64,000 nucleotides of DNA. It comes from an uncultured Candidatus Bathyarchaeia archaeon. Lineage in GTDB: Archaea > Thermoproteota > Bathyarchaeia > Bathyarchaeales > Bathycorpusculaceae. A program made the translations under genes and the position numbers. Under the pieces are notes generated by a model. It saw only the letters and a list, made by a program, of their open reading frames with translations. It was not told where the DNA came from and ran no database searches. Shown here piece by piece: positions 22,361 to 28,268 of this stretch (positions are counted from its first letter, which is position 1; the number at the start of each line of letters is the position of its first letter). The stretch covers positions 4,853 through 68,852 of the forward strand of contig CAZDNV010000001.1 of assembly GCA_964506875.1 (NCBI GenBank). The letters run 5' to 3'.

Positions 22361-22843
22361 CTAGAACTGCTGAAGCACGTCCTTCCTCTCCATAATATAC
22401 CCGCAGTAGTGACACTTCAACAGGAGGGGTTCCTCACTATCAACGTAAAACTTGGCCTGCACAGGCTCATTGCTATTGCTTATGCAGGCAGGGTTGGCGC
22501 ACCTGATTATGTTCTCAATAGCCTTCGGCAACTTCACCTCTTGCTTCTTCACAACCCTGTAATCACGAATAATGTTGATAGTGGCATGAGGCGCCAACAA
22601 AGCTATCTTGTGAACCTCCTGCGGATTCAGTTCGCGCCCTTCGATTTTCACAATATCTTTGCACCTAAGCCGTTTGCTCGGCACGTTAATCGCAATAGTG
22701 ATGGTTCCTTTCTCTCGTCCTGTTATTCCCAAAATCTTGGCCACATCCAAGGCATACGCAGCAGTGATATGATCAATGACTGTACCGTCCTTGATCTTAG
22801 AAACGTACAATTCCGTTTCGCTCATACGTACTGTCTCCGCCAA
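22361..22843 (-). CDS. pyrI: aspartate carbamoyltransferase regulatory subunit
   Basis: 160 aa. VSKIKDGTVIDHI N-domain and the Zn domain CANPACISN..CHYCG. Confidence 0.9.
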   Translation of the reverse strand: MAETVRMSETELYVSKIKDGTVIDHITAAYALDVAKILGITGREKGTITIAINVPSKRLRCKDIVKIEGRELNPQEVHKIALLAPHATINIIRDYRVVKKQEVKLPKAIENIIRCANPACISNSNEPVQAKFYVDSEEPLLLKCHYCGYIMERKDVLQQF

Positions 22844-23120
22844 GAGGAGCCTATACCCTAACAGAGATAAAAAGACTTTTAGCTCATGATGTCCCTTGAA
22901 TCCAGATAATTCACTCTGCTCCTGAGCAGCCGCTCAAACATAAGCTTAGAGTCATCCAAGAAGGATCACGTAAAGAACCGCTCAATTCATGAACAGCCAA
23001 GGTGAAACTGAAACAGGTATGGCACGCCATCTTCCAGAGCGTATGGCCCGAGCAAGGTTCGGGCAAACTTATTAATGCGAAGCATGCGTTAGGTTTGCAC
23101 TTGCCAAAGAAGGTACAAAA

Positions 23121-24770
23121 TTGAACGCAAACCCATCCAGTTCGCCTTTGCCCTCACCATCCCCACTGCCTACGCCATCACCCAAGACAGGCAGAAAAAG
23201 AAAAACAGCCATAATCGTTTTGGCTCTCATCACGATTATCGTGGTTGCGACGGTCGCCTTGTTCTATTTCAACATCTTGCCATGGCCTTTCAAAAAAGGA
23301 GGAGGAAAAGAAAACTACGGCTTAGTAGTAGGCATAGTCACCAACACTTACGGTCTTCCTCTCCTCAATGTTAATTCCAGCATCAGTAACCAGACCACCC
23401 AGACTAATGATCAAGGATGGTTCTGCATACCCAACTTGGCGGCTGGCAACAGAACAGTAGTCAAGTTCAGCAAGAGCGGCTATGCAACGACCTATCAGTT
23501 GGCCAACGTCCAGGTCGGCAAGAGCAGCTTTGTCGAAGTCTCTATGGGTGAGGTTGACGAGAACGACTCTTTCAACGCCTCAAACGGTGCCAGTATAACG
23601 ACTCTTGAAGGTGGGACAGTGACGATCCCTGCAGGCTCTCTGGTTGACACTTCAAATATCTCTTACATGGGCACGGCGCAGGTCTCTATAACCATGTTTG
23701 ATCCCACTGACGAGACAGAGATAGATGCTTTCCCGGGAGAATACATCGGACTTACGGCGCAGAATGAAACGGTTCCCCTGACATCTTTCGGATTCATGGA
23801 CATCTCTGTAACCGATCAAGGCGGAGGAACGCTTCAACTGGCACAGGGCGAAAACGCGACGATCAGGATTCCAGTGCCGCCTACACTGTGGCAGAACGCC
23901 ACAGAGTTAAGCAGATGCTCACTCTGGTATTTCGACTCGGCAAAAGGCATCTGGCGCGAAGAAGGCTACGGGATCTATGACCCAGGCCGAGTCTGCTTTA
24001 CGGGAAGTGTGACCCACTTTTCCATGTACAGCTTTGACATCATAACCAGAACACTGGAGACTTACATCGAGGGCAATGTAGTTGACTCAAACTCCACAGC
24101 AGTTCAAAACGCTCAAGTTGCATGCTGGACCCGTGGCTGGAGAACAGTTGGACCATCAACAGGCTCGACGGGTTACTTCAAGATACCTGTTGAGCCAGGA
24201 GTCGCCGTTAGGTATCAAGCCTCTAAAGGCGGTCACAAGAGCACCATCGGAGAAACAGGCCCTCTAAACGCAGGCGAAGCAAAAAACATCGGAAACATAA
24301 CCCTCGATTCGCCACTTGCCCAGATCATATTGACTTGGGGGGCAAGTCCGCAGGACTTAGATGCTCATCTGGCAGCCAAGCCTGCAAATGTCATGGAGGC
24401 AACTTTCCACGTGTACTATGGCCAAAAAGGAACTCTTCCGTCTGAACCATATGCAGACTTGGACACTGATGAAAGGGAAGGGTACGGTCCAGAAGTAATA
24501 TCCATTTCAAGACTACGTCCCGGAACCTACCGATACTCAGTAAGACATTATTATGGCGATGGCAACATTTCAACCTCTGGAGCAGTAGTCAACGCGGCAA
24601 TAGAAAACGTAGGACTGTATAGGTTCACACCGCCTGGTAGTCAACCTGCAGAAGCAGACATCTGGCAGGTCTTCGATTTGGTCGTGAATTCAAACGGCAA
24701 GGTTACAGCCGTCAACCAAATAAGCGACTACAAACAGGGTGGCGACGACTCTCGATTCCTTTACCCATAG
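23121..24770 (+). CDS. membrane-anchored extracellular protein (CarboxypepD_reg-like domains plus a DUF2135/YfaP-like C-terminal domain)
   Basis: 549 aa. Pro/Ser-rich N-terminus, one TM helix, beta-sandwich-like repeats (GIVTNTYGLPL..SKSGYAT), then ILTWGASPQDLDAHL..DLDTDEREGYGPEVISI..GTYRYSV. Confidence 0.65.
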   Translation: MNANPSSSPLPSPSPLPTPSPKTGRKRKTAIIVLALITIIVVATVALFYFNILPWPFKKGGGKENYGLVVGIVTNTYGLPLLNVNSSISNQTTQTNDQGWFCIPNLAAGNRTVVKFSKSGYATTYQLANVQVGKSSFVEVSMGEVDENDSFNASNGASITTLEGGTVTIPAGSLVDTSNISYMGTAQVSITMFDPTDETEIDAFPGEYIGLTAQNETVPLTSFGFMDISVTDQGGGTLQLAQGENATIRIPVPPTLWQNATELSRCSLWYFDSAKGIWREEGYGIYDPGRVCFTGSVTHFSMYSFDIITRTLETYIEGNVVDSNSTAVQNAQVACWTRGWRTVGPSTGSTGYFKIPVEPGVAVRYQASKGGHKSTIGETGPLNAGEAKNIGNITLDSPLAQIILTWGASPQDLDAHLAAKPANVMEATFHVYYGQKGTLPSEPYADLDTDEREGYGPEVISISRLRPGTYRYSVRHYYGDGNISTSGAVVNAAIENVGLYRFTPPGSQPAEADIWQVFDLVVNSNGKVTAVNQISDYKQGGDDSRFLYP

Positions 24771-24910
24771 AAAACTGCATACCGAAGAACAACTTAATTC
24801 GCCATATTTCTTACTTTCGCGCGCCAGCATAGACCCCGGGCAATGGTCAATCGCTATCGTTGGACCAGCAGCATCCGTCAAAAGGACGTTCGTAAAGAGT
24901 TATTTATTAG

Positions 24911-25861
<951 letters not shown>

Positions 25862-25881: not shown

Positions 25882-28095
25882 TCACGACGTTGCGTATTGA
25901 TCATAGATTGATAGCGCCCCTATTGAATTGCATGATGGACACTTGTGCAGCAGGCCAAACCAGCTTCTTTTGCAGCTGAGGCAGTAGGTTAATCTACGCC
26001 TAAATGTGAGAAACTCCAGACTGCAGTTTTCGACAGCTTGCTTTGTCACAGACAGAAGCTCATCTGGTTTGTATTCGAGGTCGCCAAGCTCTATAACCGC
26101 TAGGCTACCGCCTATGCTCAGCCCTCGTAGCTGCCTCTCAACGTCTGAAGCCTCTGGTGGAATCTGGCCACCTTTAAGAGCCAGCCTACTGACCGTAGAG
26201 TAGAATGGTTTTTCCCTTATGCCTGAAAACTTGGCCGTTCCAAGACCATACTTGTCGACGTCCAATTGCGCGAGTCTCTCAGAGGCTTCAGTTTCATACA
26301 AGACAGCCGGAAGCAAGCGTTTTCCGCTTTTCCTGCCGATCTTGTGAGTGTAGTCTAAGATGATTTGGATTACGTCCTGCATCCATTTTCGGGCCTTCTC
26401 GTCCTCATAAACGCTCTTCCCACTAAGCAGCTCCACGGTCTCCTTTAGCCCGACCAAGTTAATCAAACGCGAAGATACTCCAGGCTTGAAATACTGATCT
26501 CCGTTAATGCTTTGCGCGAGAAACGGAAGCAACTCTTTTCCATGTCGCTTTAGCGATCCATATTTGACGTCAAATGCGCGAGCCGCTATCTCAAGTCTTT
26601 CTTTCAGCAACTCAGAGAACTTCGTTTTGTCTTTCTCACATTCATATGCGATTCTAGGCAGATTGACCGTTACAGTTCCCAAACAACCCACGCGCAATGT
26701 GTCTATTTCCCAATCACCACTCGACTCTGTCATAAATCTGCGACCAGAACCCGAGAAGACAGTTTGTCCTTGGCTGCCATTTGATAGGCAAGCAAAGCAG
26801 ATAGTCCCTCTCTCTCCTGCTAGACCGTGAGCCTTCAGAAGTAGCGCATTTGCCCTGTTATCGCTAAATGCTTCCTGCCGTGTCTTGACAACAATCTTTG
26901 GATTAAGCAGTGGCTTGAGCCTGTTCTCCTCAATGCAGATGTCTAGGATAACAGACGCCAAGAGCTGAGCCTCTTCAAGGAAGCCTCCGTATTCTCCGGC
27001 CGTTTTCCCCGCAAGGCCTACAGCAGTTTTCTTAGCTATGAAGTCAGGGATAGTTAGTTCCAGGCCTATTGAAATGTTCAAGTGGTGAGTTATGCTGGAA
27101 ATGAATAGGCTCAGCAACTCCTTGATCCTTGCCGGCTCTACTCCTCGTGCGAAGGGAGCCAGAAAAACGTTGAAGTAGTCAAGATGCTGTGCACTGTCCA
27201 CTTCTTTCGCTGAGCTTAGAAGAACGTCGAGAGTTAAGGATAAGGCTGACTCAAAGCTATGTGGAGGCAACGAAGAAGATTGGTGGCCGTTTGATTCTTC
27301 GAGAGTTGCGCCATTCTGATAGAAGAACCTCAAGTCATGCATTATCTCACTTGGCTTTAGGGTCCATGAGCCTAGGTCTTTGATGTGGATTGCACCAGAC
27401 AAGTGTGCGTCAGAGATGTCTCTGGGCAATGCTTTTAGTAGCATGTATTCTCTGAGAACTGCCTCTCCAGCTGTTTCGCAGACAGAAGAGGAACTGTGGG
27501 TGGTTTTGCTTCTTCCTTCGACAAGCATGGCAACTTCGTGAACGGGAAGCCCTAAGCGAGTAAGCTCGTGACGATAATCCTCTAATCCCTTCTCTATCAA
27601 GATGGCATTTACGATTTCTCTTACAAGAGGTGCTGTCAAGTATCTTGTTTTCGATTTGATCAGCCGCTTTTCGGCTTCTTTGGCTACTTTCTGAGCCAGT
27701 TCAGCAGGCACTTTCGCCTCTCTTATTAGAGAGTTTGCAATCCTGTTGGCATCAAACTCTTCTAGAGCAAACCTAGAAGCGCGGATGATAATTCCCTTCT
27801 GCTTAGAAGCCTTCTTCTCAACGCGGTCAGCAACCTCCAATATCATTTTGCCTAGGTCAGTTAAGCAGTACTTTCTTGTTTCAACGTCGGCCTCAAGCAG
27901 ATCTGCCTTCAAAAGGAATTTAAGGTGATAAGCGAACCTGCCAGCATCCCTGCTGGGGTTCATCTTCAGGGAACTCATCAGCTCCGTGTAGGAAAGGGGT
28001 CCTTTGTCAAGGAGCAAGTTAAGGATCTGCAGTCTGAGTGGTGACGATACTGCTTTGAGCACTTTGACTCCGCGCACCCGATGTGGAGCAGACAA
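25882..28095 (-). CDS. wHTH + ATP-cone + class III ribonucleotide reductase (NrdD)-like protein, probably non-catalytic
   Basis: 737 aa. ArsR-like N-terminus (LRLQILNLLLDKGPLSYTEL), ATP-cone (IIIRASRFALEEFDANRIANSLI..), NrdD core (..GTVTVNLPRIAYE), C-terminal CLSC..CPSC ribbon. See the finding for the missing Cys and Gly. Confidence 0.75.
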   Translation of the reverse strand: MSAPHRVRGVKVLKAVSSPLRLQILNLLLDKGPLSYTELMSSLKMNPSRDAGRFAYHLKFLLKADLLEADVETRKYCLTDLGKMILEVADRVEKKASKQKGIIIRASRFALEEFDANRIANSLIREAKVPAELAQKVAKEAEKRLIKSKTRYLTAPLVREIVNAILIEKGLEDYRHELTRLGLPVHEVAMLVEGRSKTTHSSSSVCETAGEAVLREYMLLKALPRDISDAHLSGAIHIKDLGSWTLKPSEIMHDLRFFYQNGATLEESNGHQSSSLPPHSFESALSLTLDVLLSSAKEVDSAQHLDYFNVFLAPFARGVEPARIKELLSLFISSITHHLNISIGLELTIPDFIAKKTAVGLAGKTAGEYGGFLEEAQLLASVILDICIEENRLKPLLNPKIVVKTRQEAFSDNRANALLLKAHGLAGERGTICFACLSNGSQGQTVFSGSGRRFMTESSGDWEIDTLRVGCLGTVTVNLPRIAYECEKDKTKFSELLKERLEIAARAFDVKYGSLKRHGKELLPFLAQSINGDQYFKPGVSSRLINLVGLKETVELLSGKSVYEDEKARKWMQDVIQIILDYTHKIGRKSGKRLLPAVLYETEASERLAQLDVDKYGLGTAKFSGIREKPFYSTVSRLALKGGQIPPEASDVERQLRGLSIGGSLAVIELGDLEYKPDELLSVTKQAVENCSLEFLTFRRRLTYCLSCKRSWFGLLHKCPSCNSIGALSIYDQYATS

Positions 28096-28190
28096 GCTTG
28101 CTCAGACCTCTGAAGCACAGCAATTTCAGTGAGTAAGAGCTTAAAGGTTTAGGAGCACTTATTCTTATGGCTTTAGAAGAAGCATAGGAA

Positions 28191-28268
28191 GGGGCTGTCG
28201 GCTAGTTTGGTCTAGGCTTGGAGCCTCGGGCGCTCTAGACCCCGGTTCAAATCCGGGCAGCCCCACCA
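28191..28268 (+). tRNA. tRNA-Pro (CGG), CCA encoded
   Basis: Hand fold: acceptor GGGGCTG/CAGCCCC, anticodon arm GGAGC-CTCGGGC-GCTCT, T arm CCCGG-TTCAAAT-CCGGG, discriminator A, CCA. Confidence 0.9.

Follow-up and report, generated by a model that had tools for sequence, protein, structure and literature searches.

The analysed sequence (the window) comprises 64,000 nucleotides of contig CAZDNV010000001.1 (positions 4,853 to 68,852 of the forward strand; assembly GCA_964506875.1) from an uncultured Candidatus Bathyarchaeia archaeon of the family Bathycorpusculaceae. An intact open reading frame (ORF) on its reverse strand (25882..28095, TTG start), defined from the ORF list and its translation and analysed by Pfam and NCBIfam scans, encodes a protein of 737 amino acids (aa) which we call W. 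It is flanked by a convergent pyrB gene and a divergent tRNA-Pro gene. W joins a winged helix-turn-helix and an ATP-cone-like domain to the scaffold of NrdD, the anaerobic (class III) ribonucleotide reductase (RNR), and lacks the catalytic elements of that enzyme. We consider it probable that W descends from archaeal-type NrdD, is no longer catalytic and now acts as a DNA-binding regulator, most likely one of DNA-precursor genes that has not been described before.

Domain architecture and catalytic loss of W

The N-terminal domain of W (residues 12-95, 27811..28062; all W features are on the minus strand, like the gene itself) is a winged helix-turn-helix of the ArsR type. The families HTH_5 (26.8 bits, cut-off 22) and DUF7347 (30.1 bits, cut-off 27.6) match residues 12-86, and the domain is modelled with predicted local distance difference test (pLDDT) values of 86-92. 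The likeness to ArsR/SmtB proteins covers the N-terminal 90 residues, with a recognition helix of the form xxFAYHLKxL in place of SHHLxxL. However, the sensory part of W is an RNR scaffold rather than a metal site, and its score for the metalloregulator subfamily NF033788 (30.1 bits) is under the cut-off of 55. The predicted recognition helix DAGRFAYHLKFL is encoded at 27913-27948. No variation between Bathyarchaeia and ammonia oxidisers is seen at G52, F54, A55, Y56, H57, L58, L61 and L62.

The next domain (residues 101-175, 27571..27795) resembles a divergent ATP-cone. The Pfam profile PF03477 aligns with residues 111-174 at 25.3 bits, slightly under the cut-off of 25.8, and many relatives of W have a precomputed match to it. 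A profile of W cones compared with the canonical cones of NrdD, NrdJ and NrdR gives an hhalign probability of 87.5% (E 3.6e-6, 73 columns). The canonical VxKRDG pattern corresponds to VRTSR in the W family and to IRASR in the window protein. The alignments show a motif YRHELTRLG (27550..27576) leading from the cone to the barrel; in it, Y174, R175, L178, R180, L181 and G182 show little or no variation, and the TRLG part is shared with archaeal-type catalytic NrdD.

Residues 199-724 (25924..27501) form a non-catalytic alpha/beta barrel of the NrdD type. PF13597 matches them with 192 bits over profile positions 6-529 of 562, so that the last 33 or so positions (530-562), corresponding to the glycyl-radical loop, are unmatched. 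The NrdD equivalog TIGR02487 scores 222.2 bits, under its cut-off of 326.35. The barrel domain ends in a zinc ribbon of four cysteines, C705, C708, C719 and C722 (25930..25983), all invariant in the W alignments. The AlphaFold2 model, built from an alignment of 38 family members, has a mean pLDDT of 80.6, residues 93-111 and 175-206 being disordered linkers. All of its best 36 Foldseek matches are class III RNRs, with template-modelling (TM) scores, normalised by target, of 0.6-0.73 (9d3x, 8p2s, 4coj and 1h7a among them). Thus the ORF list, Pfam and Foldseek bear out the architecture proposed in a first-pass annotation of the same DNA, with a borderline score for the cone.

Four catalytic elements are absent from W. 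They were traced in an alignment of 20 W proteins with seven catalytic NrdDs encoded beside W in related genomes, repeated with 52 W proteins and 15 catalytic NrdDs. The first element is the NxN flap, which touches the substrate and is among the best-conserved motifs of NrdD (PMC11226230). The KENANLQH segment of catalytic archaeal NrdDs has no counterpart in W in this alignment, where the corresponding region is the low-confidence linker 175-206.

The second element is the active-site cysteine of the first barrel strand (Cys171 in PcNrdD, C79 in T4). Catalytic proteins have TRPFCQEHDL in this strand, whereas W has PSEIMHDL (27331..27354), with the cysteine replaced by E250. The third is the thiyl cysteine at the tip of the finger loop (Cys416 in PcNrdD, C290 in T4). 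In archaeal catalytic NrdDs the loop reads NSQCCR, and in W SGSGRR, within the remnant FSGSGRRFM (26731..26757). The first-pass annotation had described a replacement of this cysteine by glycine. There is no cysteine in either register; however, that register is one residue off, the thiyl cysteine aligning to R452 and the cysteine preceding it to G451. Finally, the glycyl-radical domain is missing, as had been suggested from the sequence: W stops 15 residues past the last cysteine of the zinc ribbon, whereas catalytic NrdDs go on with WWSRITGYYQ..GWNxGK.

The loss is not confined to the window protein. A glycyl motif (R-x-x-G-Y) is absent from all 78 full-length relatives taken from the nearest species genomes. 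The thiyl position in these relatives is occupied by V, F, I, L or T, and by cysteine in about a fifth of them; since it is free to vary, the site is apparently no longer under catalytic constraint. Among 103 columns invariant in catalytic NrdDs, W retains 33, mostly prolines, glycines and the four zinc cysteines, and 46 are lost. Some distant members have decayed C-terminal tails with a glycine, such as TRVYGKY in Methanosuratincola, but the cysteine and a glycine motif were found together in no W member examined.

Family, conservation and gene neighbourhood

Starting from the window protein, 1,823 clusters were scored, and the best 120 have the W architecture at 60-67% identity. Matches to W were observed in 235 of 301 sampled genomes of the phylum, full-length ones in more than 25 families, and relatives are present in at least 588 species genomes. 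The members, identified by record names, come from Bathyarchaeia (including Bathycorpusculum), Nitrosotenuis, which oxidises ammonia, and other Nitrososphaerales, Methanosuratincola (Methanomethylicia) and Terraquivivens. The fusion of an inactivated NrdD to a DNA-binding domain, proposed for the single window protein, is a trait that entire archaeal classes have conserved. A maximum-likelihood tree of 74 proteins groups the catalytic NrdDs in a single clade (support 99), with every W on the other side. The branching order of the W proteins follows taxonomy, which is consistent with a single old origin and vertical descent, the root of the tree not being established. By its distribution and topology the family can be regarded as large and old.

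W is homologous to archaeal-type NrdD, a type with a VRTS-type N-terminal cone, over the cone, linker, barrel and zinc ribbon; it appears to derive from this lineage and is still encoded beside such an NrdD in several families. On the other hand, archaeal-type NrdD has the NxN flap, the active-site cysteines and the glycyl-radical domain, all lost by W, whereas W has the additional winged helix and scores under the equivalog cut-off. W belongs neither to the catalytic NrdD family nor to the NrdR family. Unlike catalytic NrdD, it also occurs in aerobes without the activase. Five complete genomes of ammonia oxidisers contain no PF13597 match besides W and no NrdG above the cut-off, and W therefore cannot be a glycyl-radical enzyme in these organisms. 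Annotation pipelines nevertheless give W genes, including those of aerobic ammonia oxidisers, the name 'anaerobic ribonucleoside-triphosphate reductase', and this can mislead metabolic reconstructions, for example by suggesting anaerobic synthesis of deoxynucleotides. A literature search, including RNR-wide phylogenies, yielded no account of an HTH-fused or inactive NrdD. We know of no RNR catalytic subunit that has been recruited into a regulator.

Conservation was measured as the mean frequency of the majority residue in each region, in the same 52 W proteins and 15 catalytic NrdDs. The cone is the most conserved part of the W family (0.70, with 36% of columns at least 90% conserved, against 0.53 in catalytic NrdDs). 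The winged helix has a value of 0.55. In the barrel the relation is reversed, with 0.44-0.45 in W and about 0.6 in catalytic NrdDs. The same gradient is seen when the window protein is compared with the W of an ammonia oxidiser: identity is highest in the cone (46%), lower in the winged helix (38%) and lowest in the barrel (24%). In the Terraquivivens-type proteins the barrel is shortened (total length 587-620 aa) and the N-terminus is still 37-46% identical. Since the cone and winged helix are the best conserved and the barrel the least, the functional heart of W is likely to be its N-terminal 190 residues, and selection has moved to this end of the protein.

In Terraquivivens-type genomes (loci L049, L052 and L094) the barrel has largely decayed, and the 587-aa protein of L049 also lacks the zinc ribbon. 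The neighbour of W in these genomes shares only 31% identity with PyrB and is perhaps a different carbamoyltransferase.

Gene order was compared in 57 genomes across the phylum. In 11 of them the next gene downstream of W, on the same strand, is a catalytic nrdD; in eight, including all six ammonia oxidisers, W precedes a class II RNR gene. The pyrB or pyrI genes are found beside W, or just past nrdD, in 25 genomes of several classes. The ancestral order was likely W > nrdD > (nrdG) < pyrB, pyrI >. In 72 of the 76 nearest species genomes a convergent pyrB gene follows W at a distance of 7-109 nt. In ammonia oxidisers and two families of Bathyarchaeia, W adjoins nrdJ and no pyr genes occur within 8 kb. 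The archaeal-type nrdD formerly beside W is gone in the family of the host, and W now abuts pyrB tail to tail. This loss of the adjacent nrdD, with the tight convergent pyrB kept, is a new feature of this family.

In the window, pyrB (24911..25861, plus strand) and W have 20 nt between their stop codons, as had been noted in the first-pass annotation. The pyrI gene (22361..22843, minus strand) belongs to the same conserved neighbourhood of W, (nrdD), pyrB and pyrI, and the proximity to pyrimidine genes reported for this one locus is conserved in other genomes. Within window positions 22361-25861 pyrI and pyrB are divergent, and a gene for a 549-aa secreted or surface protein (23121-24770) lies between them; in most relatives they are adjacent, divergent and about 100 bp apart.

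The TTG start of W is supported by the conservation of residues 2-11 in homologues and by a Shine-Dalgarno box GAGGT (28106-28110) 8 nt upstream. A probable B recognition element (BRE) and TATA box, CCTAAACC TTTAAG (28140..28153), lie about 45 nt upstream of the start; of 26 W promoters of the host's family, 24 contain the conserved element (C/G)CTAAC(C) TTTAAA CTCTTA. The divergent tRNA-Pro(CGG) gene (28191..28268, plus strand) was identified by ARAGORN, and the 95-bp intergenic region between it and W (within window 28096-28268) holds the two promoters back to back. Both the tRNA-Pro gene and an element AATAAGTGTTCC recur upstream of W in relatives. This element, upstream of the W TATA box, probably represents the tRNA promoter as seen from the opposite strand.

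Other ribonucleotide reductases and NrdR in the host genome

The host assembly (2.05 Mb in 191 contigs, 100% complete by markers) contains working RNRs besides W. A class II-type RNR of 697 aa is encoded on contig C5. The end of contig C47 (L002 769-1743) codes for the C-terminal part of a catalytic NrdD (..CPTCGAKCEVYSRVVGYLRPV..) and then for NrdG (177 bits, cut-off 131). This is the only NrdG over the cut-off in the genome, in agreement with the earlier remark that no nrdG gene stands beside W. At the end of contig C32 (C32:17791-18643; L148 1489-2351) a gene for a 152-aa NrdR (TIGR00244, 155 bits, cut-off 124.65; the only such match in the genome) overlaps the start of an NrdD gene with a textbook MKLVRKRDG cone. 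The start of nrdD behind nrdR at one contig end and the last part of nrdD before nrdG at another indicate an nrdR-nrdD-nrdG operon split by an assembly gap. It had been pointed out that W would have to be catalytic if it were the only RNR of a complete genome; instead, a class II RNR and this operon were found.

In the host's family a rubredoxin gene (..DWVCPVCGA..DQF..) stands before the class II gene. On C5 nrdJ is followed by a gene for a 214-aa protein similar to protein-disulfide oxidoreductases, which together with rubredoxin may form a dedicated reductant system.

NrdR is present in all 16 genomes of the host's family and in none of the 285 others of the phylum sample. The family is thus the only one in this sample to carry NrdR as well as W, with NrdR boxes at nrdR-nrdDG. 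Its catalytic nrdD is of a bacterial-like type with a canonical cone, forms a long separate branch of the tree, and is situated behind nrdR and away from W. The nrdR-nrdD-nrdG genes resemble a bacterial-type module gained by horizontal transfer. In a sister family that has no NrdR, one genome (G258, L064 5699-10304) has a bacterial-type nrdD with a canonical cone directly downstream of W. It occupies the slot of the archaeal-type nrdD of relatives, and looks like a replacement of the enzyme gene in place.

NrdR boxes occur as a pair immediately downstream of the nrdR TATA box. A scan of the whole genome with a position weight matrix yielded a single outstanding box, ACACTAGATACAGCGT (21.4 bits), upstream of nrdR, and none of at least 11 bits at the W, nrdJ or pyr promoters. 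Therefore W seems to be outside the NrdR regulon. Despite the presence of NrdR, W in this family is still intact and has ordinary branch lengths.

Possible role of W

In trigger enzymes and in pseudoenzyme transcription factors (BirA, PutA and NadR, for example) a metabolite-binding enzyme fold and a DNA-binding domain together control the pathway of the enzyme. These proteins mostly keep catalysis; W would follow the same principle, but with a dead enzyme part. If so, it would be a clear example of a radical enzyme turned into a pseudoenzyme sensor.

The closest functional parallel is NrdR. Like NrdR, W joins a DNA-binding module to a module of the cone type, in which sensing may likewise take place. 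It often stands directly upstream of RNR genes of any class, and its proposed role is to couple RNR transcription to nucleotide pools. There are also clear differences. NrdR is a protein of about 150 aa whose DNA-binding domain, joined to the ATP-cone, is a zinc ribbon; the winged helix of W is unrelated to it. W is five times larger, carries the whole fossil barrel of NrdD, and has a cone without the K-R pair. The idea that W plausibly works like NrdR, already put forward in the first-pass annotation, agrees with the RNR linkage in other lineages and fits less well in the host itself, with its own NrdR and no RNR gene beside W. NrdR is reported to be rare in archaea (PMC9110341). W, a conserved single-copy gene of Bathyarchaeia, ammonia oxidisers and Methanomethylicia, is a candidate for the control of RNR genes in this domain of life.

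The following mechanism can be suggested. The barrel, probably a dimer like that of NrdD, would provide the scaffold and might also bind a ligand. The cone and linker would sense a small molecule, most likely adenine nucleotides or deoxynucleotides, and the ligand state would set the binding of the two N-terminal winged helices to promoters of nucleotide-metabolism genes. DNA binding, the ligand, the choice between repression and activation, and the regulon are features that we infer from sequence comparison. The ancestral target may have been the RNR gene immediately downstream, that is, nrdD in anaerobes and the class II gene in ammonia oxidisers. In the host's family, control of class III would have been taken over by the bacterial-type nrdR-nrdD-nrdG operon and nrdD moved away from W. 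If so, W probably retains other targets. The remaining ones here would probably be the class II gene nrdJ, its own promoter, pyrB-pyrI, or several of these. The most economical interpretation is that NrdR acquired control of class III and W was kept for other targets, for which nrdJ and pyrBI are the obvious candidates. The host's family, having both W and NrdR and having lost the neighbouring nrdD, provides a natural contrast for separating the targets of W.

Several observations weigh against this role. The K-R pair by which ATP-cones bind phosphate corresponds to T-S in the W cone, flanked by arginines on both sides. However, the same T-S variant occurs in the neighbouring archaeal-type catalytic NrdDs, and thus it is probably a working one. 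The cone sequence alone had no significant match when compared with PDB. Accordingly, of the earlier suggestion of a nucleotide-responsive regulator, the regulatory link is backed by synteny with RNR genes of two classes, and nucleotide sensing by a cone without K-R can be suggested from its sequence relationship to canonical cones. The neighbours of W in Methanomethylicia are unrelated housekeeping genes, and in the host genome W adjoins no RNR gene. Moreover, an NrdR with a strong box already covers nrdR-nrdDG in this genome. Finally, a search of the regions upstream of W, nrdD, nrdJ, pyrB and pyrI revealed no operator motif in common; only BRE/TATA-like elements are enriched there.

The search for operators gave the following details. 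The W promoters of 26 genomes of the host's family have in common only the BRE/TATA element, the tRNA-Pro promoter and an AT-rich segment close to where transcription should start. The nrdJ promoters of the family have a BRE/TATA element and no palindrome in common with W. Enrichment of k-mers in 52 regions upstream of W and 14 upstream of RNR genes, relative to 687 control upstream regions, produced GTTTAAA-type TATA words alone. TACAG-N7-TACAG repeats and TGTATA-like palindromes upstream of nrdD are confined to one order. An inverted repeat TGATC..GATCA flanks W and nrdJ in ammonia oxidisers; with 24-67 copies per genome and only about a twofold excess over the control, it is too common genome-wide and was rejected as operator evidence.

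A wider version of the proposed role is tentative. W might be the ancestral archaeal master sensor of DNA-precursor supply, in which the whole allosteric apparatus of a fossil RNR, the cone and the specificity site at the dimer interface, was reused as the ligand reader of a transcription factor. The acquired NrdR would then have split the regulon, taking nrdDG and leaving nrdJ, pyrBI or both to W. In that case the genomes of the host's family would amount to a natural regulator-swap experiment.

The alternative closest to the proposed role is that W is indeed a transcription factor but that its regulon here is pyrimidine biosynthesis (pyrB/pyrI) or broader, the adjacency to RNR genes elsewhere being ancestral baggage. 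The very stable convergent pyrB gene of the nearest genomes, the pyr genes near W in 25 of the 57 sampled genomes, and the retention of W with normal branch lengths although NrdR has nrdDG all agree with it. We consider it unlikely: convergent genes have no common promoter, no motif common to the upstream regions of W and pyrB/pyrI was found, and the ammonia oxidisers and the two families of Bathyarchaeia pair W with nrdJ and have no pyr gene within 8 kb.

Still less probable is a protein without regulatory DNA binding, namely a pseudoenzyme partner modulating RNRs or other proteins, for example in a heterodimer with NrdD, with the winged helix used for protein contacts or unspecific binding of nucleic acids. 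One could expect such a partner to keep its barrel and zinc ribbon over very long times, as W does, and W is indeed 38% identical to the adjacent catalytic NrdD in the cone and linker and 28% in the core. However, ammonia oxidisers have W without any NrdD to pair with, the invariant part of the winged helix is the predicted recognition helix, and the barrel is the least conserved region, being reduced in the Terraquivivens-type proteins of about 590-620 aa with an otherwise similar N-terminus.

That W is still an RNR or another radical enzyme, acting through unrecognised residues or a separate radical-bearing partner, is very improbable: the intact fold with its zinc ribbon, the occasional cysteine at the thiyl position and the glycine in some degenerate tails are outweighed by the fact that the cysteine and a glycine motif coincide in no member examined, by the concomitant loss of the substrate flap, the first-strand cysteine and 46 of the 103 catalytic-invariant columns, by the presence of W in aerobic ammonia oxidisers without activase, and by the two other RNRs of the host genome.

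Some degenerate copies were also observed. A catalytic-type nrdD match with three in-frame stops (G304:C51:68219-69793) and a W-type match with one in-frame stop (G310:C130:1882-3753) may be pseudogenes or assembly errors. In the ammonia oxidiser G012 (L096 1452-1945) a 93-aa fragment of an NrdJ cone is followed by a 71-aa fragment of a W winged helix, about 6.5 kb from the intact W-nrdJ pair. These fragments are probably a relic of rearrangement or duplication, and a duplicated intergenic sequence in G287, a genome of the same genus, fits this explanation.

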